Part shown: in pieces, positions 12,574 to 45,719 of the stretch
Layout of the letters: each line of letters opens with the position of its first letter
Numbering within the stretch: position 1 is the stretch's first letter
Source: Myxococcota bacterium
GTDB taxonomy: Bacteria > Myxococcota_A > Polyangia > JAAYKL01
Assembly: GCA_028278265.1 (NCBI GenBank)
Contig: JANQET010000236.1
Span: 801-64,800, forward strand
DNA: 64,000 nucleotides
Direction of reading: 5' to 3'
Notes under the pieces: generated by a model
What the model was told of the DNA's origin: nothing
Database searches by the model: none
The model's input: the letters and a program-made list of their open reading frames with translations, nothing else
Translations under genes and position numbers: made by a program

Positions 12574-12685
12574 CGCTCCTTACTATGCATACTTTCGGCA
12601 ACAGCGTCAGATTTTTCATTATTCAACAAAAAAAATCGACGCCCTGCTCAGAGAATACGAAGCGATTTTCGCCTAATATCAGGAC

Positions 12686-13051: not shown

Positions 13052-13214
13052 TGTTGCTCCAATCTTCGAATGAAGTTACCCTCAGTCGCATAGATGTCGG
13101 CCGCCATACAATCCCAATTTTGCCACCCCTGGCAAGACCAACGACTGCTGTGAACCGTTTACCGATAACCGCGGTACCTACTTGATTATGATGTCATTGA
13201 CTTAGGAGTATGAC

Positions 13215-14840: not shown

Positions 14841-15001
14841 TCTCCAGGACAATCCAACCGAACCAGAAGTCCCAGAAGTCGAAGACGGTCGAGCGCAAAA
14901 AAAGGACACAAGATGCTTTTTTTTAGCAACCCTTCGGCTTGTTTGACCGATAGGGGTAGTATCGACGAGGTGAACATGACCATCACGCGAGTAAACCGAT
15001 C

Positions 15002-29106: not shown

Positions 29107-32028
29107 CTATCCCAAAAGGGCGGAGAGCAAGGCAGTCACCGACCGCAGGGGTGCCGGTGCAGCGGCGCCGGGCGTGCGGCAACCGCAGGATCCCCCATCG
29201 TCGTCGCTGGCGTCGTCATCATCGTCGGCCGAGTCGTCATCATCATCGGTCGAGTCATCATCGTCATCGCTGGCGTCATCATCATCGTCGGCCGAGTCGT
29301 CGTCATCGTCGGCCGAGTCGTCATCATCGTCGGCCGAGTCATCGTCATCATCGTCGTCGTCGCCGGTGTCGGTATCCTGATCCTGTTCCACCGTGTACAG
29401 ACAGACATCGTCGATGGTCCAGCCGCCGAACTCCAGCGCCGCATCGCTGGTCAGCTCCCAGCGGATCTCCACCTCGGGCTCTTCACCGGCCAGCTCGCTG
29501 ATGTCCAGGTCGAAATGGATCCACTCTCTGTCCCGGTGATGCACGGTGCCGTCCTCTTCAGCGGTGGCCAGGTTGGCCCAGACCTCTTCGTCGTTGACGT
29601 ACAATTTGGCCTGGTCGTGAAGGCCGTCCTGCACGTTCAGCCAGCGCTTGAACTGCAGGCGCACGACCTTGTACTCGGTGAGATCCCACTTGGGGCTGCG
29701 CAGGGTGTTGCTCACGTTGGGCATGTACATGCCGTCCCAGGACTCCTCGAGCTTGAGGTCGTTGCCCCAAACGTTCGTTCCGCTGGCGGCGGCTTCGGGA
29801 TCCCCTCCTTCGCCGGCCGGCTCGCCCCAGTTCCAATCGTCGGCCCCGTCCACGTTATCTCCGGCGAGCAGCTCGTGAGTCCAGTCCGGATCCTCACTCT
29901 CGAAATCTTCACACAGAATTTCAATCAATGGACCGACGTAGACCCGGTAGAATGGTTCGGCTTTGTTGTTCGGACGCATCACCTTCTCCCCGGACTGGGC
30001 CTTGATCGCCTCCACCCGATAGTAGAGCTCGGTGCCCTCTTCCTGCCCGGGAATCTCGGCCTCGTATGCATCACCACCGACCGAGTCCATCTCGATCTCT
30101 GCCCAGCTGGCCCCGTTGTCGGTGCTGTACACCACGCGGACGTTACCGATTTCACTGCATTCATCGTCATTGCCCACACTGACGTCGGCCTCGATGGTGA
30201 TCGGGGTCAGGGGAGTTTCGATCGCTTCGACCGGTTGATGGCTCAGCTCGATCTCCATCGAGTTGTCCTCGGCCAAACCGTGGAGGGAAAACTCCCGTCG
30301 AATGATGCAGAAGTTGGGGGTGCCGTCGGCCAAATCACCGTTGTCGTCGTCAGCCAACAGCGCGGATTCGTACGTGGTGGGGATGTTGCCCGATGTCTTC
30401 AGCATGCCGGCCATGATCACGTCGGTGGTGTTGCGACCCACGACCCAACCGTGCCGCTCCACCAACGCCTTGCGCAAATCCCACAGGGCGCCGCCGAGAA
30501 TCAGTCCGGTGATGTGCACATCGCTATCCTGGTCGTCGGGCCAGACCATGTTCGGCTCGGTGTCGCGGATGCCGTCCGGATCGCCGATGAAAAAATAGGC
30601 GCCGAGGATCGGGCTGTGAATGATCATCTGGGAGGTGGCGTCGGAGTACCCTTCGCTGGAGGCCCCGTCGAAATAGCCGATGCCGTCGATGATACTGGCC
30701 CCGTGGAAGCTGTGGCCGAACTCGTGGTAGACCACACTGCCGAGCATCGCCGTGTTGTTGCACCGATTGTCGGCAGATAAAAAGTTGATCGAACCGCCGC
30801 TGGACCAGGCGTTGCAGCTGCCGTTGTAGTTGACGTTGGTGATGATCGCCTTGTCGAGCAAATCCACATCGTCCACCACCGGTCCGATCGCCTTGGCGTG
30901 CTCCCGCATGACCGCGGCAAAACGGAACGAATCGACCTGGGACTGCTGGAATTCCGATCCGTCAGAGGCCCAGATATAGGTCTCCCCGTCGTCGATCTCC
31001 GCGGAAAGCTGCAGGTCGCTCCCCGCTTGATTGTTGACCTCGACGTACTTTCCCTTGAGCTGTGCAGTGATCTGTGCCGAATCCCCACTGGCGGTGAACT
31101 CCCCGTTTTCATCGGTGTATTCACTGGCGCCGTCTACCGTGATCCGCATGTGGGGTGCCAAGTTATCGATCAGATCCATCCCGGGTACCGGTGCTTCATC
31201 GTGGTGTTTGAGGTGGATTTTGGCGGTCATGAACATGCGTTTGTCTTTGAGCACGAAGAGCTCGCCGCTCTTGGCGTCGATGTAGGCGGTCCAGTCCCCC
31301 ACTGCCGGTGCGCTCAGCTCGACCGCATAGACCAGCTTGAAGGCCACCGAGTCCCGCCCCATGATCGGAAACGCGGCCAGCTGGTTCTCCCCGCTCTTGA
31401 CGGTCACGCCCCGCTGCCGTAGCGCCTCGACGGCCAATTGGGCGGCCTTGGCGGCTGTTAGCCGCGGTTTGGCGTCAAAGGGCAGGGCCGGAAAATTGCG
31501 CACACCGAACATCACCAATCGACCGGACATGATCGCGACAAAATTGCTCGATCCCAGTATCGGTACCCCGTTGAGGGTCTGCCGGTGACTGACGAAGCGG
31601 ATGCCGTTGGATAACACGTTGCGCCAGGGTCTGAGGCTCGTCGGTGAGACGCTGTCGAACAGCAGTTCCCGGTGCTCGACCCAAAACTGTTCGGCCACCT
31701 CGAGGGCCGCCGCCGCATCGGACATGGCCCGGGAGTTGACGTGAAACCCTTCGCCCCAATAGCGCTTGAAGTAACCGTTCATCCCCTCGTCCCGCACCAC
31801 CCAGCGACTGCTGTGTCGCTCGGTGAACACTCGCGGTGCCTGTCGCAGCGCACCGGCGTTGGAGATTCCGGCCCGGCCGGAGATCCACTTGGTCCCCCGG
31901 GGATAGTGCTCAATGCGCAGACCATCGGGCTCGCGAAACGCTTGGGCGTCGACAGCGAAGCCGATCACCAGCAGCAGAGTCGCCGCGAGGGCCAGCAGTT
32001 GACGGACTTGTTTGGTTTTACATGCCAT
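29107..32028 (-). CDS. secreted thermolysin-clan (M4/M36-like) zinc metalloprotease with C-terminal extra domains, poly-Asp linker and Cys-containing tail
   Basis: Signal peptide MACKTKQVRQLLALAATLLLV. VVYHEFGHSFH (HExxH) followed by SSEGYSD (third ligand Glu). Tail DDDDDDSADDDDD...DGGSCGCRTPGAAAPAPLRSVTALLSALLG. Confidence 0.8.
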   Translation of the reverse strand: MACKTKQVRQLLALAATLLLVIGFAVDAQAFREPDGLRIEHYPRGTKWISGRAGISNAGALRQAPRVFTERHSSRWVVRDEGMNGYFKRYWGEGFHVNSRAMSDAAAALEVAEQFWVEHRELLFDSVSPTSLRPWRNVLSNGIRFVSHRQTLNGVPILGSSNFVAIMSGRLVMFGVRNFPALPFDAKPRLTAAKAAQLAVEALRQRGVTVKSGENQLAAFPIMGRDSVAFKLVYAVELSAPAVGDWTAYIDAKSGELFVLKDKRMFMTAKIHLKHHDEAPVPGMDLIDNLAPHMRITVDGASEYTDENGEFTASGDSAQITAQLKGKYVEVNNQAGSDLQLSAEIDDGETYIWASDGSEFQQSQVDSFRFAAVMREHAKAIGPVVDDVDLLDKAIITNVNYNGSCNAWSSGGSINFLSADNRCNNTAMLGSVVYHEFGHSFHGASIIDGIGYFDGASSEGYSDATSQMIIHSPILGAYFFIGDPDGIRDTEPNMVWPDDQDSDVHITGLILGGALWDLRKALVERHGWVVGRNTTDVIMAGMLKTSGNIPTTYESALLADDDNGDLADGTPNFCIIRREFSLHGLAEDNSMEIELSHQPVEAIETPLTPITIEADVSVGNDDECSEIGNVRVVYSTDNGASWAEIEMDSVGGDAYEAEIPGQEEGTELYYRVEAIKAQSGEKVMRPNNKAEPFYRVYVGPLIEILCEDFESEDPDWTHELLAGDNVDGADDWNWGEPAGEGGDPEAAASGTNVWGNDLKLEESWDGMYMPNVSNTLRSPKWDLTEYKVVRLQFKRWLNVQDGLHDQAKLYVNDEEVWANLATAEEDGTVHHRDREWIHFDLDISELAGEEPEVEIRWELTSDAALEFGGWTIDDVCLYTVEQDQDTDTGDDDDDDDDSADDDDDSADDDDDSADDDDDASDDDDDSTDDDDDSADDDDDASDDDGGSCGCRTPGAAAPAPLRSVTALLSALLG
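29200..29390 (-). repeat. (GAC-GAC-GAT-GAY)n coding repeat (poly-Asp linker)
   Basis: Seen directly. Confidence 0.9.
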
Positions 32029-32973: not shown

Positions 32974-33744
32974 ATGACCGCTGAGTTTTCAAAAAGAGGA
33001 GCCGATAACGTGTTGAAAGAAAAGACCGTTCTGATCACCGGCGGCACCGGCGCAATCGGGTCGGCCCTGTGCCGAATTGCTGCTGAACAGGGGGCCAGTG
33101 TGGCCTTTACGTATCACCGCAACCGGGAAACAGCAGATGAGTTGCAAGGGGAGCTGGAGCGCAGGGGGGGTCGCGTCATCGGCCGATCTGTCGAGGCGAC
33201 GGACGGTGCTGAGGTGACCGCGTTTGTGGAACAGGTGACCGCCGAGCTCGGGTCGATCGATGTGCTGGTCAACAACCTGGGGGTGACCCAGGTGATGCCT
33301 TTCGCCCTCATCGAGGAGGAGGATTGGGATCAGCTGATCGAGACCAATCTCAAGGGATTGTTTCTGTTTTCCAAGGCGGTGGTGCGGACGATGGCGCGGC
33401 GCAAATCGGGAGTGATCGTCAACATCGGCTCGGTGGCCGGTCACCGGATCATCGAAGTGCCGGTTCACTACGCCACGGTCAAGTCCGCCGTGGCAGGGTT
33501 TACCACTTCCCTGGCCGGAGAAATGAAACGGTACGGGGTGAGGGTCAATGCGGTGGCGCCCGGGTTGATCGATGGGGGGATCGGCCACAATGTCTCGGCC
33601 CGTCAACTGGAGGAGTACAACCGGTTCTGCGCGCTCGGCCGACCCGGTACCCCTGAGGAGGTGGCCCACCTGGTCCTCTTTTTGGCTTCGGATAAAGCGT
33701 CGTACATCAACGGCCAAGTCATTTTCACCGATGGGGGAATTTAA
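32974..33744 (+). CDS. SDR family oxidoreductase (FabG-like 3-oxoacyl-ACP reductase)
   Basis: TGGTGAIGSA Rossmann motif and YxxxK/NNLGV motifs. Immediately followed (1 nt) by a radical SAM gene. Confidence 0.85.
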   Translation: MTAEFSKRGADNVLKEKTVLITGGTGAIGSALCRIAAEQGASVAFTYHRNRETADELQGELERRGGRVIGRSVEATDGAEVTAFVEQVTAELGSIDVLVNNLGVTQVMPFALIEEEDWDQLIETNLKGLFLFSKAVVRTMARRKSGVIVNIGSVAGHRIIEVPVHYATVKSAVAGFTTSLAGEMKRYGVRVNAVAPGLIDGGIGHNVSARQLEEYNRFCALGRPGTPEEVAHLVLFLASDKASYINGQVIFTDGGI

Positions 33745-35166
33745 ATGAGCTGCTGTCAAATCGGAGGGGACGAACAGACCTTCTTGTCGGCCACCAAGGG
33801 GATGTGCCGTGAGTGCCGGGAAATAGTGGACGCCCGCTACGTGGCCCGTGGGGAGCGGGTTTTTTTGGAGCGCCATTGTCCGAGTCACGGAAAACAGACC
33901 GCGTTGGTGGCCCGACGGCTTTCATCCTATTTGGAGATGATGCGCACCCCGCCCGGAGGGCAACCGCCCCGGCGCGTTCTGACCGAGCGGCAAGGGGGAT
34001 GCCCCACCTCCTGTGGCCCCTGCTCCTTTCACGGGCAAAACTGCCATCTCCCGGTCTTCTCGATCACCAACGCCTGTGATCTGCGCTGCCCTATTTGTTT
34101 TACCTACAACCGGACGGACCAGACCTTTTTCATGTCTGAAGAGGCGTTTGTCGAGCAGATCGATTTTGTGATCGACGCGGCAGGACCGGTCGACCTGGTC
34201 AACATCACCGGCGGGGAGCCCACCTTGCACCCGGAGTTGCCCCGGCTGTTGCGCCACGCCCGGCGACCGGAGATCGGCCGAATCACCGTCAACACCAACG
34301 GGTTGAACCTGGCCCGGAATCCCGGATTGGCCAGGGAGCTGGCCGATTTGGGCGTCTACTTGATCCTCTCTTTCGATACCTTTAATCCCCGGACGAGCCA
34401 AGCGATTCACGGCCGGGATATCGTCGAAGCCAAGCTCTCGGCGCTCGAAACAGCGGAGCGGTACGGTATTCCAACCACTTTGTTGATGGTGCTGATCAAG
34501 TCGGTCAACGAAGCGGATTTGGCGCCGGTGGTGGAGCTGGCCCTGTCCCGTGACATCGTTCGCTCCCTGACGATCCAGACGATGACCTACACCGGACAGG
34601 GGGGTGGCGAGTTCCTGCCGCGGGCCCATCTGCCGGTGGACGAGGTGGAGGAGCTGATCGAAGCTGCCACGTCGGGCCGAATCCCCCGCGCGGCATTCAT
34701 GCCGTTACCCTCGGCCCACCCACTGTGCTACGGGGTGGCCTACCTGATGTCCCACGGTGGGGCGACCCATTGCCTGACCGAACTGCTCGACAAATCGACC
34801 ATCGGCCAATATCTCCAAGAGGGTTACCTGCTGCGGCCTTCGGACGAGCTGGAGATCGAGCTCAAACAGGCGATCGACCGCCTGTGGAGCGAAGGGGGAG
34901 ACCCGGAGGTTCTCTCGACCCTCAAGTCGATGATGACGGACCTCTTTCCCGCCCAACCGATCACCGTCGCCGAACGCCAACGACGGGCGGAAAAACAGTT
35001 GAAGACGATCTACGTGCACGCCCATATGGACGAGGACACTTGGGAGCTGGGCCGCGCCGTGCGCTGTCCGGATCAGGTGCCGGTGGATGGCAAGCAGCTG
35101 ATCGGTGCCTGCAACTACAACCTGTTCTATCGCATGCGAGATGAGCGATTTTGGGTGACCCGATGA
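33745..35166 (+). CDS. radical SAM enzyme with N-terminal Cys-rich (zinc-ribbon/rubredoxin-like) domain, paralogue A
   Basis: N-terminus CC...CRECRE...HCPSHG and CPTSCGPCSFH; radical SAM NACDLRCPIC (CxxxCxxC); GGEPTLHP. Confidence 0.85.
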   Translation: MSCCQIGGDEQTFLSATKGMCRECREIVDARYVARGERVFLERHCPSHGKQTALVARRLSSYLEMMRTPPGGQPPRRVLTERQGGCPTSCGPCSFHGQNCHLPVFSITNACDLRCPICFTYNRTDQTFFMSEEAFVEQIDFVIDAAGPVDLVNITGGEPTLHPELPRLLRHARRPEIGRITVNTNGLNLARNPGLARELADLGVYLILSFDTFNPRTSQAIHGRDIVEAKLSALETAERYGIPTTLLMVLIKSVNEADLAPVVELALSRDIVRSLTIQTMTYTGQGGGEFLPRAHLPVDEVEELIEAATSGRIPRAAFMPLPSAHPLCYGVAYLMSHGGATHCLTELLDKSTIGQYLQEGYLLRPSDELEIELKQAIDRLWSEGGDPEVLSTLKSMMTDLFPAQPITVAERQRRAEKQLKTIYVHAHMDEDTWELGRAVRCPDQVPVDGKQLIGACNYNLFYRMRDERFWVTR

Positions 35167-36650
35167 ACCGTTTGAACAACGCCGCCGGTATGGTGGACGA
35201 GATCTGTCACAGCGCGACTCAGGGGTTGTGCAACACCTGCGGACAACTGACCGACGCCCGGATCGTTTTTCGTGGCGAGCAGGTGGTGCTGCAGAAGTGG
35301 TGTCTCGAGCACGGACAGACCGAGGCGCTGATCTGTTCGGACAAGGCGTGGTATTTGTCCTCTGGGGGATTCGTCAAGCCGGGCACCGAACCGCGGCAAC
35401 GGGCGGTGACCGAGTTCAACGGCTGCCCCGACTCCTGCGGGTTGTGTCCTGAACATCAACAGCACACCTGTGTGCCGATCGTGGAGATCACCGATCGCTG
35501 CAATCTGGCCTGCCCGATCTGTCTGGTCCGCGATCGCTGCGAGCAGGAGCTCACCGTGGCCCAGGCGAGCGCGATGTTCGATCGGTTGGTGCGGTACGAA
35601 GGTCAGATCAACATGGTGACCCTGAGCGGCGGAGAGCCGACCGTGCATCCCCACCTGCTCGACATTGTCGACGCGGCCCGGGAGCGGCGTGAGATCGGCG
35701 TCGTTTCGGTCTCCACCAACGGCGTGGCCCTGGCCCGCGACGACGACCTGCTGCAGGCCTTGGTGGATCGGGAGGTGGTGATCTCCCTGCAGTATGACGG
35801 GCACTCCGCTGACGTCTACCGAATCCTGCGCGGGGACCCGGCATTGGCCGAGCTCAAACAGAGGTTGATCGAGCGGGTGGTCGAGTTGGGCGGCCTGCTC
35901 TCACTGACAGTTACCCTGGCCCGCGGCATCAACGAGGACCAGTTGTCCGGCGTGCTAGAGCGGTTTTTTGGCCACGATCAGATCTTGAGCATCATGGTGC
36001 ACCCCCTGGCCTATCGCCCCCGTCAGACGCCGGAGATCGCTTGCGATCCTTCCGATATCATCACCATCCCCGATGTGGTGCGCTTGCTCAGCGAGCAATC
36101 CGGCGGCCGATTGGTCCGGTCCGATTTTGTGCCGCTGCCCTGCTCCCATCCCAGCTGTTTCGCCCTGACCTACGTGCTCAAGACCGATGACGGCAAGTTC
36201 GTCTCATTACCCCGGTTGATCGACCTCGAGACCTATCTCGACGTGATCAAGAACCAGGCGCTGCTCAGCACGGATGCTGAAAACCTGGGCAAGATCAAGG
36301 ACGCCATCTACGCGCTGTGGTCGGCGCAAAACGCGGTCCCTGATCAGGAGAGCGTGCTGCGGACCGTGCGGCAGATCCTGCTGCAGATGAACCGGCTGGG
36401 AAATGATACACCCTCGCCGCGGGATGCGCTGTCCCTGGGGCTGCGGCATGTCAAATCGATTTTCATCCACCAGTTCATGGATCGGGCCACCTTTGATCTG
36501 TCGCGGGCGATCAAGTGCTGCAACCACTACCCTGGGGCCGACGGCCGATTGCAGCCCGTTTGTGTGCGCAACACCATCACCGCGCCGCGGGCGACGTCGG
36601 GCGGAGCTGGGCGCGAAAGAACCACAACACCAGACCCACCCCGAGGGTGA
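35151..36650 (+). CDS. radical SAM enzyme with N-terminal Cys-rich domain, paralogue B
   Basis: CNTCGQ...WCLEHG, CPDSCGLCPEH, DRCNLACPIC, GGEPTVHP. Collinear similarity to paralogue A; overlaps it by 16 nt. Last ~25 aa are low-complexity. Confidence 0.82.
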   Translation: MGDPMNRLNNAAGMVDEICHSATQGLCNTCGQLTDARIVFRGEQVVLQKWCLEHGQTEALICSDKAWYLSSGGFVKPGTEPRQRAVTEFNGCPDSCGLCPEHQQHTCVPIVEITDRCNLACPICLVRDRCEQELTVAQASAMFDRLVRYEGQINMVTLSGGEPTVHPHLLDIVDAARERREIGVVSVSTNGVALARDDDLLQALVDREVVISLQYDGHSADVYRILRGDPALAELKQRLIERVVELGGLLSLTVTLARGINEDQLSGVLERFFGHDQILSIMVHPLAYRPRQTPEIACDPSDIITIPDVVRLLSEQSGGRLVRSDFVPLPCSHPSCFALTYVLKTDDGKFVSLPRLIDLETYLDVIKNQALLSTDAENLGKIKDAIYALWSAQNAVPDQESVLRTVRQILLQMNRLGNDTPSPRDALSLGLRHVKSIFIHQFMDRATFDLSRAIKCCNHYPGADGRLQPVCVRNTITAPRATSGGAGRERTTTPDPPRG

Positions 36651-37395
36651 TCAGCAGCTCGGTGAGCTCCTCCCAGAAGTCGAGCCAGACCGGCGTGCGG
36701 GCAAAGGCGGTGACCAGACAGAAGCGAAACCAGGAGAACAGCCAAAACCCCAGCCCGACGAAAAATGGCCCCTTGGCCCTGGCCGGTGCCGTGGCAGCTC
36801 CCCAGAGCAGCCCGGCCGTGGCGACGAAGCACCCCGCGGCGATGATCGGGAAGAGGCGAAAATTGAGCCAGATCAAGAACGGAGAGTAAGTGTAGCGCAC
36901 CTCGCTGCCGAAGACTGTGCCGAGGTGATCGTAGGGGGCGATGGTCGCGGTCAGCGGCAGCAGGGCGACCACGGCAAAAAACAGGGCGGCGAAGATCATC
37001 AATCGCTTGAGGCCGCAGGGGACATCGTGTTGCTTGTAGCATCGACCGCAGAACCGCTGAAGCACACACCTCTTTTGCGAATCGATAAAACCGATGACCT
37101 GGGTGTCGAATAGGGTCAACAATCCCCAGGGGACAAAGATACCCATCGCCACCATGCCCAAATCGTGCATCCCGTCGAGCCAATCGCTGGCCCCACCGGC
37201 AGAGAGAAAATTGAGCGCACAGGCCGCCTCACCGAGCCAAAACGCAGCCAAGCCGATGCAGAGGGTCGTTCGGCCCGAAAAGACGGGTTTGCGGGCAAGG
37301 GCGAGTATCCCGAGGACCAACACCATGTAGATCGGTTTGATGATGAGCCCGGAGGTGAAGGCCAGGTACTGCTCAAACGGCGTGAACAGTATCAT
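36577..37395 (-). CDS. polytopic membrane protein with conserved Cys cluster
   Basis: At least 7 hydrophobic helices. CVLQRFCGRCYKQHDVPCG loop. 3' end overlaps the paralogue-B 3' end by 74 nt (convergent). Confidence 0.5.
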   Translation of the reverse strand: MILFTPFEQYLAFTSGLIIKPIYMVLVLGILALARKPVFSGRTTLCIGLAAFWLGEAACALNFLSAGGASDWLDGMHDLGMVAMGIFVPWGLLTLFDTQVIGFIDSQKRCVLQRFCGRCYKQHDVPCGLKRLMIFAALFFAVVALLPLTATIAPYDHLGTVFGSEVRYTYSPFLIWLNFRLFPIIAAGCFVATAGLLWGAATAPARAKGPFFVGLGFWLFSWFRFCLVTAFARTPVWLDFWEELTELLITLGVGLVLWFFRAQLRPTSPAAR

Positions 37396-37727
37396 CGCCG
37401 GTCAATTCTGGTCTGAGATGACGCTGCCATATTGCATGACGATCGTGCGATCTGCCTGATTTGTCAATTGGCTGTCGTGGGTGGCGATATTGGTGACCTG
37501 AACCCCCACGCCGATGATCACCGCCACCATCACCAGACCAAAAGAAAATCGATTCTTCTTGAGCGACTGAAGCGCCGGAAATGCAAAGATGCTGAGGTCG
37601 GACTGGGTTCCTTCGGGCAACGGGTTCTCCTTTTGCTGCTCGGAGCAGGCTGCAAAAACTCGTTCCGACAATTGGCGCGATTTGTGCGGTTTGAGAATGG
37701 GTTGATCGGTGGTATCGAGGGAGCAGT

Positions 37728-38756
37728 ATGTGGCGATCGGTGCGCAACTATTGGTATTTGCGGCTGGCTGGGGTCACCCCGACGCGATGGCGCCCCTTGC
37801 TCGCGGTCTACTACTTGACCTATGCCTGCGATTTCAGATGCCCCTATTGCGCGGACGGCGCGAACCGTCCGTACTATCGGCTCGATTCGCCGACTCTCGA
37901 CGCGGACGGGGTCGTCGAGCTGCTCACCACCGTGCGGCGATACTGTGACCACTTGGTGCTCACTGGCGGTGAGCCGCTGAACCACCCGCAAGTGGACGAA
38001 ATTCTCCGCGCACTTTCGCCACTTGGATTTCGCAGTGTGGTGTTGACGACCAACGGGTATGACTTGGCGCCCCGGCTGGCCGGCGTGCTGGAGGCGGTGG
38101 ATCACCTGGTGATCAGCCTGGACACCTTGGATCGGGCCAAGGCAGACGGCTGGTACGGGGTGGGAGACGGGGCCCTGGACCGCATTCTGGCCACCGCCCT
38201 AGAGGCCGAAGCCAGGCGCTCGGCCAGCAGCACTGAGATCATCGTCTCGGCTGTGGTGACCCCCCACAACATTGCCGATTTGTACGAGGTCTATCAGTTC
38301 TGTCAAACCAATGGGCTTCGCTTTGCCGCCTCTCCCCAATTGGAGGGGGTCAAGGTACATCCCGATTTGATCGACAACGGGCCTTACCGGACGCTGTTCG
38401 ACTTTTTGCTCGAGGAGAAGAAAAAGGGTCGGGCGATCAACGGGACGCCCCTCTACCTGCAGTACATGCGCGATCTGAAGGCGTTTCGCTGTTTCCCTTC
38501 CGCCACCCTTGCCGTGTCACCCGTCGGAGAGGTCTTTTACCCCTGTCTGGAGCGGGGCACCAAGGGGGGCAACTTGCTTCAGGAGCCGGACCTGGATCGG
38601 ATTCGGCAACAGGCGATCGAGCGATTCGGCCCCGAGCCCAGCTGTGACAACCGCTGCCACTCCGCCTGTGCTCTGAGTTTCGGGCTCATTCTGGGACGGC
38701 CGTGGAGCATGGCCCCCGAGGCGCTGATTCAGCTCAAATCAAGATGGCATCGTTGA
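37728..38756 (+). CDS. radical SAM enzyme (SPASM/twitch-like C-terminal Cys motifs)
   Basis: YACDFRCPYC, LTGGEPL, C-terminal CDNRCHSAC. Confidence 0.8.
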   Translation: MWRSVRNYWYLRLAGVTPTRWRPLLAVYYLTYACDFRCPYCADGANRPYYRLDSPTLDADGVVELLTTVRRYCDHLVLTGGEPLNHPQVDEILRALSPLGFRSVVLTTNGYDLAPRLAGVLEAVDHLVISLDTLDRAKADGWYGVGDGALDRILATALEAEARRSASSTEIIVSAVVTPHNIADLYEVYQFCQTNGLRFAASPQLEGVKVHPDLIDNGPYRTLFDFLLEEKKKGRAINGTPLYLQYMRDLKAFRCFPSATLAVSPVGEVFYPCLERGTKGGNLLQEPDLDRIRQQAIERFGPEPSCDNRCHSACALSFGLILGRPWSMAPEALIQLKSRWHR

Positions 38757-39773
38757 AGGGGGTGGGGTCAGGGGCAACGGCCGGGTCATCTGGTAGTAGT
38801 CCCGCAGGTTGGCCCACCGCTGATTCCCGTACATCAGCGTCTCGATCGCCCCGCGACAGCTGGTCCAGCAACTCGAGCATTCGTTTGCCAGGTGCTTTTC
38901 ACGAAGCCGAGCGGTGAGGGTGTCAATCGGCTCGGTGAGAATGTTGCCCACAGGTTGATCGAGGCAGTCGATACACAGGCTCACGTCCCCCCGGCAGTCG
39001 ATGTTGCAGAGGTTTTTCCCGGCATAGCAGGGGGAGATGCCGTCCTGTTCGCCGGCCCTGGTGAAGCGCCCGATGTAGCCCCGCAGGGTGACGAAATCCG
39101 GGTACCTTTTTTTGAGGTCGAGTAACCGTTTGCTGATCGCTGATGGGGCGACCCGGCGGGATTTCTGGCCCCTCATGGTGGAGTGGAGGGTCACCAGGTA
39201 GGTCACATTGAGTGATCCGGCGAGGCGGATCAACGGTTCGATGTCGTCCAGGTTGTCGTCCATCACCACGGTGATCAGGTTGACCCGCTGCTCCGGAACG
39301 AGGCGGTTTTGCCCCAAGACGCGCAAGGCGTCGACCGCGCGGTCATAGGCACCGGTGATGCCCCGTTGGGCGTCGTGCCGGGTCGCGTCGGCATAGTCGA
39401 TCGAGACGCTGATCTCCCACATCCCCGCGGCGAACAGGGCGCGGGCCATCTCCCGGGTCATGTACCAGCCGTTGGAGATCATCACCGGAAAATGGTGCCG
39501 GCTCAGTGTTCTGACGATATCCACCACCTCGGGGTGCATCAACGGCTCACCACCTCCCACGTGGATGATTTGCGGGGCGATGCGATTGAGCTTTTCGGAG
39601 ATGACGCGGACGTCACCGGCGGTCAAGTGGGCGCCGGCGGTGCGATCCTGCCACAGATCGCAGATTTGGCAGCGGCAGTTGCAGCGCTCGAGGATCTGCA
39701 TGTTGGTGTGGATTATTTTCCTTTTGGACAAAAACGCCCTGACAAAGCGAAGCATTTTGCGGTTGTCTTTCAT
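38739..39773 (-). CDS. radical SAM enzyme (SPASM-like C-terminus)
   Basis: ERCNCRCQIC, VGGGEPLMHP, C-terminal CNIDCRGDVSLCIDC...CSSCWTSC. Confidence 0.8.
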   Translation of the reverse strand: MKDNRKMLRFVRAFLSKRKIIHTNMQILERCNCRCQICDLWQDRTAGAHLTAGDVRVISEKLNRIAPQIIHVGGGEPLMHPEVVDIVRTLSRHHFPVMISNGWYMTREMARALFAAGMWEISVSIDYADATRHDAQRGITGAYDRAVDALRVLGQNRLVPEQRVNLITVVMDDNLDDIEPLIRLAGSLNVTYLVTLHSTMRGQKSRRVAPSAISKRLLDLKKRYPDFVTLRGYIGRFTRAGEQDGISPCYAGKNLCNIDCRGDVSLCIDCLDQPVGNILTEPIDTLTARLREKHLANECSSCWTSCRGAIETLMYGNQRWANLRDYYQMTRPLPLTPPPSTMPS

Positions 39774-39776
39774 CGC

Positions 39777-40769
39777 CTAACCATACAAAAAATGCCGATA
39801 CAGATCGACCAGTTGAACGCGCTCTTTGAGGCTGAACGGTTGGCGCGGTGCCACGTGGCTCAACAGCGAGGTGAGCGCGATCCGCTGATCGCCGTTGGGG
39901 CGCTGTTCGTTGAGTTCGGTCAGTATCCGCTCGCTGTGGGACGGGGGGATGAGCTTGTCTGACTTGTCGTGAATGAGGGCAACGCGACCTGAGAGCCGGG
40001 ATAATTTGTGCTGTGGCGAAATCGATCGGCGCTGCTCCGGGGAGAGGGGCTGCCTGGCGGCGCGGCGCACAGCTTCGCTGTCGGCGAATCGGCGGTACAA
40101 TGTGAGCTTCCATGCCGGATCGTCCCGCTGACAGTAGTCGGAAAGACCTTGCCGGAGCGCTTGTTGATCCCCTTCGGAGAGGGGCGATGCCCGGCGCTCC
40201 CGCCAGGCGATGATCAGGTGGAAGTAGATGACGTTGTCCAACACCGCCTGGTCCATCTCCTGGTGAATATCGATGGTGAGAAGCTGGTCCCACACCTCTT
40301 CAATCGCGTAGGGGGCGCCGATGCAGAGCGCGGCGTCGACCCCGGTACCGGACTCCATTTCGGCCAGTGCGGTCAACAGTAGCCCTGCCCCGAAGCTGAA
40401 CCCAGCGGCGATGACCGATGGTGTCTCCGTGCGAAGGAGCCGGCGCACCCCATTTTGGATCGCCGTGCGGTCGCCGTCGATGATGCGAGCGGTCTTGAGG
40501 CCCGGCAGATCCGGAACGATTGTGGCAAAGCCGAACCTGGCGTGGGCGGTGGCAAAGTGGATCAGACGGGGATCGTCGCGACCCAGAACCGTGACGCCGG
40601 GTACGGCGAGTAGGGATCCGCTCGGAGCGCGGTGTGGGGAATACAGTGTGTACTCCGTGCCACAGTCGAGTTTTCCGTCGGTTGTTGTTACCGAAGAGGA
40701 GCCACCTTTGAGGTTGGGTGGTTTGGCGAGGGAGGTGAGCAACCGGATTGCGGTCCCCCAGCCCTTCAA
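39777..40769 (-). CDS. alpha/beta-hydrolase fold protein (putative thioesterase/acyltransferase)
   Basis: Size and secondary-structure-like pattern; no clean GxSxG seen, so the call is weak. Confidence 0.5.
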   Translation of the reverse strand: MKGWGTAIRLLTSLAKPPNLKGGSSSVTTTDGKLDCGTEYTLYSPHRAPSGSLLAVPGVTVLGRDDPRLIHFATAHARFGFATIVPDLPGLKTARIIDGDRTAIQNGVRRLLRTETPSVIAAGFSFGAGLLLTALAEMESGTGVDAALCIGAPYAIEEVWDQLLTIDIHQEMDQAVLDNVIYFHLIIAWRERRASPLSEGDQQALRQGLSDYCQRDDPAWKLTLYRRFADSEAVRRAARQPLSPEQRRSISPQHKLSRLSGRVALIHDKSDKLIPPSHSERILTELNEQRPNGDQRIALTSLLSHVAPRQPFSLKERVQLVDLYRHFLYG

Positions 40770-41173
40770 GGGGATTCTCCAAGCTTCCGCGCGATGGACT
40801 TGGCCACCTCCTCGGCAGTCAGCAGAAAGGCGAGCTGCTTGATCGTCGTGCCCTCCACCAGGGACGCCTCTGCTCGGGGAAAGCGCTCCCGCAGCATGGC
40901 CAGCGCCCGCGGGGTCAGCACCTCGTCCCGGTGCAGCTCAGCCTCGGCCAAGCCGAGTTGCGCCGACAGGCTCATGTCCTGTTTGTCCAGCTTGATCTCG
41001 AACTCCTGTTCGAGCAGAAACATCAGCTCCACCAGATCGAGGGACTCGGCGCCCAGGTCGTTCATCAGGGTCGATTCCGCGGTGATGGCGGACGGCTCGA
41101 GGGCCAGTACTTCGGCGATGCAGTTGTTGACGCGCGCTTGAATGTCGTTTTTTCCGGTGGCTTCGGTCATCAA
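40766..41173 (-). CDS. acyl carrier protein (extended C-terminus)
   Basis: LGAESLDLVEL phosphopantetheine-attachment (DSL) motif. Start ATG overlaps the ketoreductase stop (ATGA). Confidence 0.8.
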   Translation of the reverse strand: MMTEATGKNDIQARVNNCIAEVLALEPSAITAESTLMNDLGAESLDLVELMFLLEQEFEIKLDKQDMSLSAQLGLAEAELHRDEVLTPRALAMLRERFPRAEASLVEGTTIKQLAFLLTAEEVAKSIARKLGESP

Positions 41174-41910
41174 TATCCTCCGTCCACCGGCACTACGGCG
41201 CCGGTGATATAAGCTGCATCATCCGAGAGCAAGAATGAGACCACCTTGGCGATCTCGTCCACTGTGCCGAATCTGCGCAGAGCGATACTATCGGTGATCG
41301 CATCCCCGGCGAGCGTCCTGACCGCCCGGGACATTTTGGTCTCAATCACACCGGGGGCCACAGCGTTGACGCGGATCTGCTTGGGACCCAATTCGACGGC
41401 GAGGGCACGGGTGAACGACTCGACAAATCCCTTGGTACCGGCGTAGACGGCATTGCCCCGATTGGGCCGGGTCGCTGCCACCGAAGAGATGTTGATCACA
41501 CTGCCCCGTTTTTGGCGCATCATCGGACGCAGCACCGCCCGGGTCAGGCGGACCATTCCCGCGATGTTGGTCGCGAGCATCGCCTCCAGATCCTCGTCCT
41601 CGAGGAGCGCCAGCAGTTCCTCGCGAACAACTGCGGCATTGTTGACCAGACCGTGGATCGTATCAAACGCTTCGACGGAACGATCGACGATCTGTTGGGC
41701 GCAGTCCGGTTCACAGATATCCCCGCGGACGAGAATCACCCGGGACCCCCGGTCACGGCACCGGGCCTCGACGCGATTGGCCGCCTTTTTATCCCGGTGG
41801 TAACAGAGCACCAGATTGGTCCCGGCACCTGCCAGTGACTTGGCCAGGGCCGCTCCGATGCCCCGGGAGGCACCGGTAATGATTAGCGTTCTTGTGTTAT
41901 TTTTTTTCAT
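41170..41910 (-). CDS. SDR ketoreductase (3-oxoacyl-ACP reductase-like)
   Basis: TGASRGIGAA, NAAV, YAGTK. Start at M48 of the track ORF (ATG 41910). Confidence 0.85.
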   Translation of the reverse strand: MKKNNTRTLIITGASRGIGAALAKSLAGAGTNLVLCYHRDKKAANRVEARCRDRGSRVILVRGDICEPDCAQQIVDRSVEAFDTIHGLVNNAAVVREELLALLEDEDLEAMLATNIAGMVRLTRAVLRPMMRQKRGSVINISSVAATRPNRGNAVYAGTKGFVESFTRALAVELGPKQIRVNAVAPGVIETKMSRAVRTLAGDAITDSIALRRFGTVDEIAKVVSFLLSDDAAYITGAVVPVDGGY

Positions 41911-41944
41911 TTCGTTGTCTCGAACCTCGTTGAACAGGACCGTG

Positions 41945-43225
41945 TTACGGTGACCATTGCCCGGCAACGATGCAGGCATTTTGGCCGCCGAACCCGAATG
42001 AATTTGACATGAAGTGCTCCACAGTCGCCTGGCGCGGCGTGCCGGGCACATAGTCCAGATCGCACTGGGGATCCGGGGTGACCAAATTGATCGTCGCCGG
42101 GAGAAGCTGCTCGTTCAGGGCAAACAGGCCGGCGATGAACTCCACCGCACCGGCGGCGCCGATCAAGTGACCGATTTGACTCTTGGTGGAGCTGACCGGA
42201 ATCTGCCTTGCCCGGGAACCGAACACCTTCTTGATCGCTCGGGTCTCGGCCGGATCGTTTTTACGGGTTCCCGTGCCGTGGGCATTGATGTAGTCCACCT
42301 GGGCCGGGGAAAGCCCTGCCGAGGCCAGTGCCCCCCTCATCGCGCGAATTGCGCCGGCCTGATCCGGGGCGGGATCGGTCACCCGGTAGGCGTCCATCGA
42401 CGAGCTGTAGCCCAACACCTCTCCGTGAATGGTGGCCCCCCGGGCCAGCGCCGACTGGGCGTTCTCCAGGATACAGAATCCCGCGCCTTCGCCGAGCACG
42501 AAACCGTCCCGGTGTTTGTCGAACGGGCGGGACGCACCGGGTCCCAAATCGTTGGCCGTGGAGAGGGCTTCCAGCATGCAGAACCCGCCCACGCCGAGGG
42601 GATTGAGCATCGAGTCGTAGCCCCCGGTGACGGCCACGTCCAGCACCCCTTGGCGGATCGCGAGGAAGGCCTCGCCGAGGGCTTGGGTGCCGGCGGCGCA
42701 TGCGGAGACGTTGACCTGAACCATCCCACCGGCACCGGTCAGCCGGGCGATCGCCCTCGCCCCGAGGTCCGCGGGGATCTGGAGGTTCGTGAACACGGGG
42801 GTGTCAAAGAGGTGGTCGCGCAGCGCCCGGCCGTCGATCGCGCCGTCGGAGAACAGGGGCACCAAATCGTCGAGGTGAAAAATTTCCAACCCCGCGGCGG
42901 CAACAACCCCTACCCGCTCCTCGGGGTAGCATCGGCTGATCGGAACATCGCCGAAAGCGGCAGCCAGCGCTTGACGAGCGGCTGTGACGCCGAAGGCCGA
43001 CTTGGGATCCGCGCTCAGGGCAGATCGCTCCCGGTCCGACAATCCGGTGGTATCCAGGTCAAACCCGTTGACCTCTGCGCCGATTCGGGTCGGAAAACGC
43101 CCCGCATCGAACGAGGCGATGCGATCCACACCGGCCCGTGCGGATCGCAAGCCGTCGAAAAACGGCCCGATTCCGATGCCGATCGGAGCGACCACCCCCA
43201 TCCCGGTGACCACGACCCTAGGCAC
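41945..43225 (-). CDS. beta-ketoacyl-ACP synthase (KAS I/II-like, catalytic Cys-His-His present)
   Basis: VSACAAG (Cys), NAHGTGT (His), QIGHLIGAAG (His). Confidence 0.9.
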   Translation of the reverse strand: MPRVVVTGMGVVAPIGIGIGPFFDGLRSARAGVDRIASFDAGRFPTRIGAEVNGFDLDTTGLSDRERSALSADPKSAFGVTAARQALAAAFGDVPISRCYPEERVGVVAAAGLEIFHLDDLVPLFSDGAIDGRALRDHLFDTPVFTNLQIPADLGARAIARLTGAGGMVQVNVSACAAGTQALGEAFLAIRQGVLDVAVTGGYDSMLNPLGVGGFCMLEALSTANDLGPGASRPFDKHRDGFVLGEGAGFCILENAQSALARGATIHGEVLGYSSSMDAYRVTDPAPDQAGAIRAMRGALASAGLSPAQVDYINAHGTGTRKNDPAETRAIKKVFGSRARQIPVSSTKSQIGHLIGAAGAVEFIAGLFALNEQLLPATINLVTPDPQCDLDYVPGTPRQATVEHFMSNSFGFGGQNACIVAGQWSP

Positions 43226-44417
43226 CTGAGCCCTCCTCGGGGGCGAGCGCCAAGGCGAACTGAGCCCCGTCCGCGTCCCCGGCAGAAATCAGGTAGCACC
43301 GATCCGTTGAATCGATCGGCGCGTTGCCTGGGGGGTCGCCCGTCAGCACCAATGCCACGGCAAAGAACACCCCGGCCGGACCGAGCTCCCCCAGGGCGCC
43401 GTCGAACGACACCAGCCTGGCACGCTCCGTTTGGGGGAAGGCGTCCCGCTGGTCTGCTTCCGCGATATCGGCCGTGCGATCCGGGTTGCCGCAGGAAACG
43501 ATTCGGCTGGGTTGCCGGTTGCCCAGCGCCCTTGCCCAGTGCCGGCGGCGAACCGCGTACAGCTCGTCCGGTGTGGTCCCCTCGCTTCGTCCATGGGAGA
43601 CGCCGAGTACACGGGCGCGGATTGGCGTGCCCCTCCGAGCAGCCGTTCCGCGGGTTGTCATGACGAATAATCCGGCACCGTCGGCCGGGGCGATGCCGCG
43701 GTGCTGCGGCTCGAAAGGAACCGCCTGTTCGACCGTTTCGGCGAGCCGTCCCAGGCGCAGTTGGGTGCACAGTGTCATCAAGCTGAACCCCTGGGAAGCG
43801 GCTCCGACCAGCACCTCGGTGAAGCGGCCCTCGACCAATCCCCGGGCGGCAGTCTCCAAGCAGGCGCCGGCCTGATCCACACTGGGATAGGTGACGAAGT
43901 TGGGCCCTTTGAGATTGAAACAGATCGAAATCAAGCCCACCGGCATATTGAGCAGCGATTTGAACGGCATCAGCGGATGGCAGGCACCCAACCCCTCTGT
44001 TCCCATCCGCTGCAGATCGAGGGTGCCGTCCGGGGCCTTGGACCGCTCCACCGCGCGGCTCACCGAGGAGAGATCGAACACGGTCATTCCCACCGCGGCA
44101 AACAGCCCCATCGGTTGAAGCACATCGTCGCTGTCGATCACTCCCGCGTCGCTCAACGCTCGGCCGGCGGCGATCACCGAAAGTGACGTGGTCTGGCTCA
44201 TGTACTTGGCCAATTTCCGATCGGGCAAAAACGGCGCTGGCGAGGCGGGCTCTGCCGTCGCACCCGGACAAGGGGGAAAGGCGTCGACCCCCGCGGGAAT
44301 AGCCATGGACAAGGCGCTGCGTCCCTGCTTGATCGCCGACACGGTGGCGGACAGGTCGCCGAACGGACCGTGCAGGCCCACGCCGGTGATGACCACATCC
44401 CCGTCGGATCCGGGCAT
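43218..44417 (-). CDS. ketosynthase-like protein lacking the catalytic Cys (chain-length-factor-like partner)
   Basis: Thiolase-fold KS-like sequence, but the active-site position reads SVDQAGA with no Cys/His triad. Start at M134 of the track ORF (ATG 44417), which overlaps the dehydratase stop. Confidence 0.72.
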   Translation of the reverse strand: MPGSDGDVVITGVGLHGPFGDLSATVSAIKQGRSALSMAIPAGVDAFPPCPGATAEPASPAPFLPDRKLAKYMSQTTSLSVIAAGRALSDAGVIDSDDVLQPMGLFAAVGMTVFDLSSVSRAVERSKAPDGTLDLQRMGTEGLGACHPLMPFKSLLNMPVGLISICFNLKGPNFVTYPSVDQAGACLETAARGLVEGRFTEVLVGAASQGFSLMTLCTQLRLGRLAETVEQAVPFEPQHRGIAPADGAGLFVMTTRGTAARRGTPIRARVLGVSHGRSEGTTPDELYAVRRRHWARALGNRQPSRIVSCGNPDRTADIAEADQRDAFPQTERARLVSFDGALGELGPAGVFFAVALVLTGDPPGNAPIDSTDRCYLISAGDADGAQFALALAPEEGSGA

Positions 44418-44881
44418 CACTCGACGACCTTCATTTCTCGGGTGATCAGGTCGAGGTACTGTTTGCCGAACGTGTCCAGCTCCGGGTCGTCCACGTGGAG
44501 CATGACGTAAATGATATCCGCTTGGCACACCTTGTCCCCGTCCCGGGAACCGATCACTTTGACGAATCCGGAATCCTCGTGGTGCGACTGGATCTCGGCC
44601 CTCACCGACAGCTTGTCTCCCGGTTTGACGAAGTCGCGAAATTTGGCCTTGACTGAGCTGAGCACGCAGCGGGGCACATCCTCTTGGCGATCGCGGAGGG
44701 AGAGCTCGATCAGCGCTCCTCCTAGCTGGGCCATCGTCTCGATCAACAGGGCCCCCGGGTAGATCGGCTGACCCGGATAGTGGTACTCGAAACAGTCGTC
44801 CGCCAGGGTGATGCACTTCGAGGCCACCGCGTAGTCGAATTTTTTGATTTCCTCTATTCGGTCAATCAGTAGGTATCGCAT
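44417..44881 (-). CDS. FabZ/FabA-like beta-hydroxyacyl-ACP dehydratase (hot-dog fold)
   Basis: YHYPGQPIYPGALLIETMAQLGG is a classic FabZ motif. Confidence 0.82.
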   Translation of the reverse strand: MRYLLIDRIEEIKKFDYAVASKCITLADDCFEYHYPGQPIYPGALLIETMAQLGGALIELSLRDRQEDVPRCVLSSVKAKFRDFVKPGDKLSVRAEIQSHHEDSGFVKVIGSRDGDKVCQADIIYVMLHVDDPELDTFGKQYLDLITREMKVVE

Positions 44882-44899
44882 GGGTTCATACCGACCTCG

Positions 44900-45571: not shown

Positions 45572-45719
45572 CGGATGGCCAAAACGTAAGGGTGAGACCC
45601 GTCGAAGTCAACGGGAGGTGGATCGTCCCGCGGCGACTGAACGGGCGTCCGGTCCGACAGGAGAGCTTGAAAAAAAGATCGGTTTGCTCCACCCTCAACT
45701 GGAAAGTGAAGCACAAAAA

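Follow-up and report, generated by a model that had tools for sequence, protein, structure and literature searches.

What can two divergent homologs of the tetraether lipid synthase Tes be doing side by side in a bacterium, among genes of the fatty acid type? The question is raised by a 64,000-nucleotide stretch of DNA from a Myxococcota bacterium (GenBank assembly GCA_028278265.1, contig JANQET010000236.1), hereafter the window, in which two adjacent genes encode radical S-adenosylmethionine (SAM) enzymes, here named rSAM-A and rSAM-B (A and B for short). An initial annotation, made from the letters alone, had pointed to a resemblance of their architecture to that of Tes, also called GDGT-MAS (GDGT, glycerol dialkyl glycerol tetraether). 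Herein, sequence comparison shows the two genes to belong to a separate branch of the Tes superfamily, paired and of His type, which is found in many phyla and is marked by an ancient A/B pair, a Met-to-His change at the predicted auxiliary cluster and a self-contained gene cluster with a ketosynthase (KS), a chain-length factor-like partner (CLF) and an acyl carrier protein (ACP).

To our knowledge, Tes is the sole characterized enzyme of this superfamily, and its Csp3-Csp3 coupling is unprecedented. Tes forms these bonds through an intermediate in which the substrate is bound to a sulfur of an iron-sulfur cluster (PMC9433317; review PMC13459092). Lloyd et al. reported GDGT-MAS homologs in bacteria without known biphytanyl chains (PMC9433317), and Zeng et al. 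described 456 bacterial 'Tes homologs', for which a role in the synthesis of branched GDGTs (brGDGTs) was proposed (PMC8941075). A Black Sea metagenome survey inferred producers from such homologs and states that none is confirmed (PMC11868695).

Tandem arrangement of rSAM-A and rSAM-B

Two tandem open reading frames (ORFs) were found where the initial annotation had placed them, A at 33745-35166 and B, when read from a TTG, at 35151-36650. The products are collinear paralogs, as had been claimed, with 142 of 457 residues identical (31%, E 8e-70) in a pairwise protein alignment. All of the motifs pointed out earlier, C-x2-C, (W/H)C-x-(E/S)HG, CPxSCGxCxxH and CxxxCxxC, are present in both proteins. 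They read C21-x2-C24 ... H-C45-P-S-H48-G, C86-PTS-C90-GP-C93-SF-H96 and C111-x3-C115-x2-C118 in A, and C23-x2-C26 ... W-C47-L-E-H50-G, C88-PDS-C92-GL-C95-PE-H98 and C113-x3-C117-x2-C120 in B, numbered from its ATG.

The junctions differ from the earlier description. The most likely start of B in the sequence is the ATG at 35163, because this codon overlaps the A stop codon (TGA, 35164-35166) in a 4-nt ATGA, and because the deposited protein P0001 (495 aa) is identical over its full length to the product of this start. The overlap is therefore 4 nt and not 16 nt. Likewise, the gap between A and the upstream short-chain dehydrogenase/reductase (SDR) gene, given as 1 nt, is 0 nt, since the SDR stop codon (TAA, 33742-33744) directly abuts the ATG of A at 33745.

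Predicted fold and metal sites

Both A and B matched the Pfam domains PF23545 (Zn_ribbon_HMPTM, the N-terminal zinc ribbon of Tes) and PF04055 (Radical_SAM). Residues 7-473 of B aligned with PDB 7TOL, the GDGT-MAS/Tes of Methanocaldococcus jannaschii (MjTes), at an E value of 2e-54. AlphaFold2 models had a predicted local distance difference test score (pLDDT) of 90.3 and a predicted template modeling score (pTM) of 0.92 for A, and of 86.4 and 0.88 for B. With these models, the top Foldseek match was 7TOL for A, at a template modeling (TM) score of 0.80, and 7TOM for B (TM 0.78), over 482-504 aligned columns. The two Tes structures were the sole full-length structural matches; the next ones, MoaA, viperin and SkfB, covered the radical SAM core only, with TM scores of ~0.36. 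The proposed resemblance to Tes is thus borne out by profiles, by the alignment with 7TOL, by the structural models and by the ligand mapping described below, and no characterized radical SAM family outside lipid chemistry claims A or B.

The metal centers of Tes are a rubredoxin-like Fe (C9, C12, C33 and H36), a cluster termed [4Fe-4S]N (C73, C77, C80 and a His), the CX3CX2C cluster, and [4Fe-4S]C, held by three Cys and the labile Met439 (PMC9433317, PMC13459092). For ligand mapping, MjTes was aligned with 48 A-type and 75 B-type sequences from related loci; the 7TOL/MjTes sequence was rebuilt from a printed alignment, from which the numbering C338/C455/C470 used below derives. The rubredoxin-like site corresponds to C21, C24, C45 and H48 in A and to C23, C26, C47 and H50 in B; both clades keep its Cys throughout, with His or Cys as the fourth ligand. 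Every residue of [4Fe-4S]N (C86, C90, C93 and H96 in A; C88, C92, C95 and H98 in B) and of the radical SAM cluster (C111, C115 and C118; C113, C117 and C120) is invariant in both clades, and so is the GGEP SAM-binding motif. The N-terminal Cys module of the initial annotation corresponds to two separate sites of Tes, the rubredoxin-like Fe and [4Fe-4S]N.

A third, C-terminal auxiliary cluster lies beyond the motifs listed earlier. In the columns of MjTes C338, C455 and C470, Cys was found in 48, 48 and 47 (one gap) of the 48 A-type sequences and in all 75 B-type sequences. We infer that these residues (C328, C441 and C456 in A; C332, C452 and C467 in B) are the [4Fe-4S]C ligands, since C438 and C456, the remaining C-terminal Cys of MjTes, are not conserved. 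The Met439 column is occupied by His (H425 in A, H436 in B) in 47 of 48 A-type and 72 of 75 B-type sequences. Among 93 full-length representatives of the superfamily, Met439 was nearly confined to those nearest MjTes; the A-like and B-like ones had His, and other groups had Lys, Gln, Glu or Arg. By predicted fold and retained metal sites, A and B are shown to be complete Tes-superfamily enzymes, and with all ligands and GGEP kept they look like active ones.

Relationship to Tes and TrsS

The best NCBIfam models for both proteins were TrsS (NF045646), a radical SAM (seleno)protein family, and then Tes (NF045702), whose curated cut-offs are 490 and 450 bits, respectively. A scored 207.8 bits on TrsS and 188.5 bits on Tes, and B scored 241.9 and 221.4 bits, all under the cut-offs. 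The Tes cut-off does discriminate, because the Tes-type (Met-type) representatives P0355 and P0384, which served as positive controls, reached 610 and 573 bits. Five more cluster-linked paralogs from related loci had 222-266 bits on the Tes model and were also under both cut-offs. Because of these scores, the His in place of Met439 and the type II fatty acid synthase/polyketide synthase (FAS/PKS) context, A and B are classed from sequence as homologs and not orthologs of Tes, being neither Tes nor TrsS by the curated cut-offs.

A and B share with Tes (MJ0619; 7TOL, 7TOM) the four-domain fold over the full length, the size and a lipid-related genomic context, together with the rubredoxin-like Fe, [4Fe-4S]N with its three Cys and His, CX3CX2C and the three [4Fe-4S]C Cys. 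They differ in being bacterial, in their low identity to MjTes (23% for A, 30% for B), in scores of 188-221 bits against the required 450, in the His for Met439, and in occurring as two divergent paralogs in place of one enzyme. Whereas Tes is associated with isoprenoid diether lipid synthesis, A and B stand in a KS/CLF-ACP cluster, and the predicted KS/CLF, ACP, FabZ and FabG neighbors argue for a fatty-acyl, not an isoprenoid (phytanyl), substrate. TrsS is the best-scoring curated model for both (208 and 242 bits, full length) and represents an uncharacterized branch of the same superfamily. However, A and B lie under its 490 bits, and their ORFs are uninterrupted, full length relative to 7TOL and in need of no in-frame UGA, unlike many TrsS; the comparison is uninformative on chemistry.

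Among 1.84 billion 50%-identity representatives searched exhaustively with HMMER, just 331 reached E <= 1e-30, indicating that the superfamily is small. In a neighbor-joining tree, A and B formed two separate clades (A-B identity 30%). Since each clade spans several phyla, the duplication is judged from the tree to be ancient, with both copies retained. A third Tes-like paralog is found downstream of the membrane protein gene (see below) in the Verrucomicrobia loci L023 (12404-13729), L030 (11408-12742) and L047 (12431-13756); it is ~28-29% identical to A and B and falls under the Tes and TrsS cut-offs. Public entries by the Joint Genome Institute (JGI) name P0048, P0049, P0149, P0150 and many others 'tetraether lipid synthase' or '7,8-dihydro-6-hydroxymethylpterin dimethyltransferase'. 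For the A/B clade, both names appear from our comparisons to be over-annotations.

Conservation of the gene cluster across phyla

A scan of one genome per species gave 80 related loci, which were searched by tblastn with the window proteins; 38 loci had enough flanking DNA for co-occurrence counts. The same gene set surrounds B orthologs in an Acidobacteriota and a Myxococcota metagenome-assembled genome (MAG). The order dehydratase (DH)-CLF-KS-FabG2-nitroreductase (NTR)-ACP-FabG1-A-B, followed by the membrane protein, rSAM-D/C and a hydrolase, recurs in at least 12 phyla, among them Myxococcota/'Deltaproteobacteria', Acidobacteriota, Elusimicrobia, Planctomycetota (Phycisphaerae), Verrucomicrobiota, Bacillota (including Syntrophomonadaceae) and Ignavibacteriales. 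At the 38 loci, FabG1 was present in 35, KS in 33, DH in 32, A in 30, NTR in 29, ACP in 27, FabG2 in 26 and rSAM-D in 23. Gene content and order show A and B to be fixed components of what is predicted to be a dedicated gene cluster, of type II FAS/PKS-like character and encoding four radical SAM enzymes.

A distant form exists in Polyangia, Burkholderiales and others, in which a B-like gene (~38-40% identical to B) lies beside FabG1 and DH-KS-KS, and an A-like gene is located farther off in some loci, including the complete genome CP019169 (L052). The carriers are nearly all MAGs. Accessory genes also recur: in ~25 loci the gene for a second FabZ-like hotdog protein separates FabG1 from A, in 24 loci a hexapeptide-repeat acetyltransferase is encoded between A and B, and 5 loci have an ICMT/MddA-like membrane methyltransferase, often after a cysteine desulfurase gene. 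In locus L026, the ORF at 13520-14845 resembles a B12-binding radical SAM enzyme, judged by eye alone.

Genes of the cluster in the window

FAS/PKS-type genes and genes for four radical SAM enzymes, identified with Pfam and NCBIfam, make up a 12.6-kb cluster (32974-45571) in the window (Table 1).

Table 1. Predicted features of the cluster and its flank, in window coordinates
Feature	Position	Strand	Description
FabG1, FabG-like SDR	32974-33744	+	Pfam adh_short_C2/adh_short/KR; NCBIfam FabG 219.6 bits (cut-off 297.75)
rSAM-A	33745-35166	+	473 aa; Tes/GDGT-MAS-superfamily radical SAM enzyme, A clade
rSAM-A rubredoxin-like/zinc-ribbon domain	33781-33915	+	aa 13-57 (PF23545); C21, C24, C45, H48 = MjTes C9/C12/C33/H36
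rSAM-A [4Fe-4S]N and radical SAM sites	34000-34098	+	C86-x3-C90-x2-C93-x2-H96; C111-x3-C115-x2-C118; invariant in 48/48 A-clade sequences
rSAM-A C-terminal auxiliary cluster region	34726-35112	+	C328, H425 (for Tes Met439), C441, C456; His in 47/48
rSAM-B	35163-36650	+	495 aa from ATG; Tes/GDGT-MAS-superfamily radical SAM enzyme, B clade; alternative TTG 35151 (499 aa)
rSAM-B [4Fe-4S]N and radical SAM sites	35424-35522	+	C88-x3-C92-x2-C95-x2-H98; C113-x3-C117-x2-C120; invariant in 75/75 B-clade sequences
rSAM-B C-terminal auxiliary cluster region	36156-36563	+	C332, H436 (for Met439), C452, C453, C467; His in 72/75
Polytopic membrane protein	36577-37395	-	272 aa; no Pfam or NCBIfam match; convergent with B, 74-nt overlap
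rSAM-C	37728-38756	+	342 aa, Cys-rich C-terminal region; Pfam Radical_SAM; NCBIfam sub-threshold MoaA, PTO1314, HpnH
rSAM-D	38739-39773	-	344 aa, SPASM-like Cys-rich C-terminus; Pfam Radical_SAM; NCBIfam sub-threshold NirJ2, mycofactocin maturase, PTO1314
Alpha/beta hydrolase	39777-40769	-	G-F-S-F-G serine motif (GxSxG); weak Pfam Abhydrolase_6/1; kept in the cluster elsewhere
Dedicated ACP	40766-41173	-	135 aa; Pfam PP-binding; NCBIfam ACP matches under cut-off
FabG2, second FabG-like SDR	41170-41910	-	Pfam adh_short_C2/KR; NCBIfam FabG 230.6 bits, under cut-off
FabF-like ketosynthase (KS)	41945-43225	-	Pfam ketoacyl-synt N and C; fabF 420 bits (cut-off 494); B. subtilis FabF 4LS5, E 7e-95
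Dead KS partner, chain-length-factor-like (CLF)	43218-44420	-	Pfam ketoacyl-synt N-terminal domain alone; weak FabF matches
FabZ/ApeI-like hotdog dehydratase (DH)	44417-44881	-	NCBIfam fabZ 95.7 bits, under cut-off; PDB FabZ matches; orthologs with Pfam FabA/ApeI-like
Nitroreductase-family flavoprotein (NTR)	44900-45571	-	First gene of minus-strand operon; Pfam Nitroreductase; sub-threshold BluB/FbiB-C
LysR-type regulator	45540-46679	+	Pfam HTH_1 and LysR_substrate; divergent from minus-strand operon

The minus-strand operon consists of eight tightly packed genes from NTR to rSAM-D, and the overlapping or abutting junctions are consistent with translational coupling. Pairwise BLAST of KS against CLF was too divergent over the active site, and the triad columns were resolved by a multiple alignment with orthologs. 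In this alignment, the Cys-His-His triad of KS is intact; in CLF the same positions are Val (for Cys), Cys (for the first His) and Glu (for the second His). By these residues, the KS partner is catalytically dead and chain-length-factor-like, which points to a dedicated chain-building machine. The ACP has a conserved C-terminal extension of ~55 aa, shared by its orthologs (128-135 aa), and its residues 8-99 align with AcpM, the meromycolate ACP of mycobacteria, past the limits of the usual core. From its family, FabG2 would be a ketoreductase or possibly an enoyl reductase, NTR is a possible enoyl reductase or dehydrogenase, and the alpha/beta hydrolase is a candidate thioesterase or release enzyme. 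The start of FabG1 is called at ~33010 in another assembly (L001), and rSAM-C orthologs occur in the cluster of other phyla. The LysR-type gene is a candidate cluster regulator by its position; no ortholog of it was found by tblastn in the other loci.

No riboswitch or other RNA family reached the gathering score in an Rfam scan of the whole window, and promoter and terminator scans of 32-47 kb gave site counts at the level of shuffled sequence. In the literature, with incomplete coverage of subscription journals, no publication was found in which Tes-like genes are described within a KS/CLF-ACP cluster, and we know of no paper on the predicted cluster itself. Immediately upstream of the cluster lies a gene for a 973-aa predicted secreted protein (29107-32028, minus strand) with no Pfam match and a long acidic C-terminal repeat (DDDDDSADDDDD...); the opposite strand of this region reads as Ser- and His/Arg-rich spurious ORFs.

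Membrane protein and sulfur-related genes

Orthologs of the membrane protein were found in 28 loci (e.g., L002 12458-13753 and L021 8714-10024). They have ~7-8 hydrophobic segments and the invariant residues E56, C59, H77, D97 and C110-x5-C116-x2-C119-x7-C127, along with a WEExTE motif. Pfam and NCBIfam gave no match for the family, which is, by its sequence, an undescribed Cys-rich one. In 13 of the 28 orthologs, Pfam and a hidden Markov model (HMM) search detected a fused N-terminal rhodanese domain, which has the active-site Cys loop and is preceded by a hydrophobic segment. Identity of this fusion with TsoB, from the three-selenoprotein Tso operon listed beside TrsS in a review, was considered and rejected, as no NCBIfam match was obtained at E <= 0.001.

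A NifS/IscS-like cysteine desulfurase is encoded in or beside the cluster in nine loci of Bacillota, Verrucomicrobiota, Ignavibacteriales and others (L031, at 12379-13848, L026, L032, L034, L038, L042, L058, L060 and L076), and at least eight of these ORFs contain a rhodanese domain, mostly C-terminal. The window cluster has neither a rhodanese nor a cysteine desulfurase gene, and its membrane protein is without a rhodanese domain.

Proposed chemistry and alternative explanations

The reading that we favor, tentatively and by analogy with Tes, is that A and B may activate inert C-H bonds of an acyl chain built by the cluster, and that C-C bonds form by way of the auxiliary cluster. The C-C outcome is preferred because it is the sole chemistry demonstrated for the Tes fold. 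An acyl chain of fixed length would be assembled on the extended ACP by KS and its dead partner, together with the reductases and the dehydratase, and this ACP-bound chain would presumably be the substrate. A and B would each cleave SAM at the CX3CX2C cluster, the 5'-deoxyadenosyl radical would take a hydrogen from an unactivated sp3 carbon of the chain, and the C-terminal auxiliary [4Fe-4S] cluster would capture the substrate radical on one of its sulfides, as has been shown for Tes. A second hydrogen abstraction would then give a new C-C bond, either as a tail-to-tail link of two chains or as a ring or cross-link in one, and rSAM-C, rSAM-D and the hydrolase would finish and release the lipid. 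Several points weigh against this proposal. A and B fail the curated Tes and TrsS cut-offs and are just 23-30% identical to MjTes, and with His for Met439 the chemistry of the auxiliary cluster may differ. The substrate could be a membrane phospholipid instead of the presumed ACP-bound chain. The rhodanese fusions (13 loci) and cysteine desulfurases (9 loci) suggest a need for sulfur for which pure C-C coupling gives no reason, and a cultured carrier of the tandem form was not found among the 80 loci.

These sulfur-related genes make a serious, though less probable, alternative of the reading in which A and B are sulfur-inserting enzymes, comparable to LipA, BioB or MiaB, on a Tes scaffold. 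The substrate radical would attack a sulfur of the auxiliary cluster, whose open or labile iron site (His for Met439) would be resupplied with sulfane sulfur by the rhodanese or cysteine desulfurase, and the C-S bond would be kept, so that the acyl chain would carry a thiol, dithiol or thioether bridge and the product would be a lipoate-like cofactor or a thio-lipid. Tes itself yields a sulfur-bearing substrate adduct when SAM is limiting (PMC13459092). The Met439 position is His in both clades and remains Met in Tes-type representatives, the rhodanese of 13 of the 28 membrane protein orthologs has its active-site Cys loop, the desulfurases of nine loci come from several phyla and at least eight of them carry rhodanese domains, the ICMT/MddA-like methyltransferase occurs in five loci, and two paralogs could place two sulfur atoms. 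LipA, BioB and MiaB/RimO likewise have an auxiliary Fe-S cluster beside the radical SAM cluster, form a C-S bond with the substrate radical and need resupply of sulfur or cluster, and LipA acts on a protein-carried acyl chain, like the proposed substrate of A and B. However, they are different families of which the radical SAM core alone superposes (BioB, TM ~0.35), sulfur retention by a Tes-type enzyme is hypothetical, and no superfamily member is known whose product keeps the sulfur. Moreover, rhodanese and desulfurase genes are absent from the window cluster and present in about a quarter of the loci, and a desulfurase could merely supply Fe-S clusters, of which four radical SAM enzymes would need about ten. 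The fully specified form of this idea is about as probable: A and B would be the first Tes-scaffold enzymes to keep a C-S bond, with sulfane sulfur passing from the rhodanese-membrane protein or the desulfurase-rhodanese to the His-ligated cluster and on to one or two inert carbons of the acyl-ACP. If it were true, at least 12 bacterial phyla would make, anaerobically, either a lipoate-like cofactor or lipids of an unrecognized class with thiol groups or thioether bridges.

It is rather improbable that A and B are bacterial membrane-spanning-lipid synthases that join phospholipid tails (e.g., iso-C15) to iso-diabolic acid- or brGDGT-type products, with the FAS genes just supplying chains. Homology to Tes with the full cofactor set, the Acidobacteriota among the members, the role proposed for bacterial Tes homologs (PMC8941075, PMC11868695) and the name 'tetraether lipid synthase' given to some orthologs by JGI all speak for it. 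Yet the scores of 188-242 bits are far under the Tes cut-off of 450, which true Tes exceed with 573-610 bits, and the KS/CLF-ACP cluster has its own carrier and hydrolase, with no glycerolipid or ether-lipid genes seen. Verrucomicrobiota, Planctomycetota, Elusimicrobia and other carriers are not named as (iso-)diabolic-acid producers in the cited literature, and Tes homologs occur in 3 of 14 iso-diabolic-acid-producing Acidobacteria (PMC13159169). According to Sahonero-Canavesi et al., most producers of diabolic or iso-diabolic acid are without Tes homologs and use the remotely related membrane-spanning lipid synthase Mss (PMC13159169). Mss of Thermotoga and Thermoanaerobacter also couples inert fatty-acyl tails by radical SAM C-C chemistry, and its modeled architecture was found to be Tes-like by AlphaFold comparison in a 2026 paper (PMC13274423), but as published it is remotely related to Tes in sequence (PMC13159169) and acts as a single enzyme on membrane lipids with no reported KS/CLF-ACP cluster. 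The membrane-spanning-lipid explanation also leaves the need for two paralogs and two more radical SAM enzymes unexplained. The KS/CLF pair has a parallel in Cluster I of anammox bacteria (amxACP, amxFabZ and amxFabF2/amxFabFmut), which likewise combines a special ACP, a FabZ-type dehydratase, an active KS, a triad-dead KS and radical SAM tailoring. A very improbable alternative is a ladderane-type or polyene pathway, in which KS, dead KS, DH and ketoreductase would make a polyunsaturated acyl-ACP that four radical SAM enzymes cyclize to carbocycles. In the anammox FabF heterodimer, the inactive FabF has Val/Thr and Glu/Cys/Asn substitutions in the triad (bioRxiv 10.64898/2026.05.19.726425); those of the window CLF, with Val, Cys and Glu at these three positions, are of the same kinds, and antiSMASH 'ladderane' clusters without known function in Myxococcota, Verrucomicrobiota, Planctomycetota and Desulfobacterota (PMC9902471) overlap the carrier phyla. 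Nevertheless, the anammox ACP/FabZ/FabF-heterodimer genes are accompanied by a phytoene-dehydrogenase homolog (PDH) and a B12 radical SAM enzyme (bioRxiv 10.64898/2026.05.19.726425), in place of which the window cluster has a nitroreductase and four radical SAM enzymes, two of them Tes-like and two SPASM-like; no Pfam amine-oxidase/phytoene-desaturase or B12-binding domain was detected in the window cluster genes. A PDB search with CLF gave generic FabF chains and chain B of 9S5H alone, of which 9S5H is unconfirmed as an anammox heterodimer, and no specific match to deposited anammox heterodimer chains. Besides, clusters of the window type are spread far beyond anammox bacteria, and the Tes precedent concerns saturated carbons, not polyenes. 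Hardly credible is the annotation, in KEGG/JGI style, of A and B as pterin C-methyltransferases (HMPTM, 7,8-dihydro-6-hydroxymethylpterin dimethyltransferase). The Pfam domain is named Zn_ribbon_HMPTM and several orthologs are so named by JGI, but the founding assignment of MJ0619 was not reproducible and MJ0619 is Tes (PMC9433317), the carriers are bacteria and not methanogens, and the neighborhood is of fatty acid type, with no pterin or methanopterin genes detected in the cluster by Pfam or NCBIfam. With MJ0619 being Tes and no pterin-pathway context, identity as HMPTM or another class D radical SAM methylase is effectively refuted.

A selD gene beside the cluster

A gene for SelD (selenide, water dikinase) is located at 46780-47838 on the plus strand and scored 365 bits on TIGR00476 (cut-off 125), measured on the ORF from 46903. 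An in-frame TGA at 46828-46830 adjoins the Gly-rich N-terminal motif, with the upstream in-frame reading MSKTEHHLTAVVKGAG-UGA-ASKLGPGDL, and this site is presumably the position at which SelD proteins carry Cys or selenocysteine (Sec). A hairpin starts 16 nt past the UGA (free energy -22.5 kcal/mol, z -1.5). From these features, it is probable that the SelD of the window is a selenoprotein and that Sec is decoded in this organism. In 86 loci, no SelD homolog was seen near the cluster; its adjacency here is therefore probably coincidental, and a link to the cluster was rejected.

Implications for the Tes superfamily

Bacterial 'Tes homologs' are used in genome and metagenome surveys as markers for the producers of brGDGTs, which are palaeoclimate lipids, and no bacterial homolog has been assayed. 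Because A and B are an ancient pair with the Met-to-His change and a self-contained cluster, genes of this type should not count as tetraether synthases. The Cys-rich membrane protein family, often fused to rhodanese, is flagged as a further part of the system. At 12.6 kb, the cluster is compact enough for heterologous expression, which could bring to light a new lipid or cofactor, as well as a reaction outcome, C-C or C-S, that is new for the Tes scaffold. The results bear on radical SAM enzymology, on the discovery of what is probably a new lipid or cofactor, and on how 'Tes homologs' are used to mark brGDGT producers.

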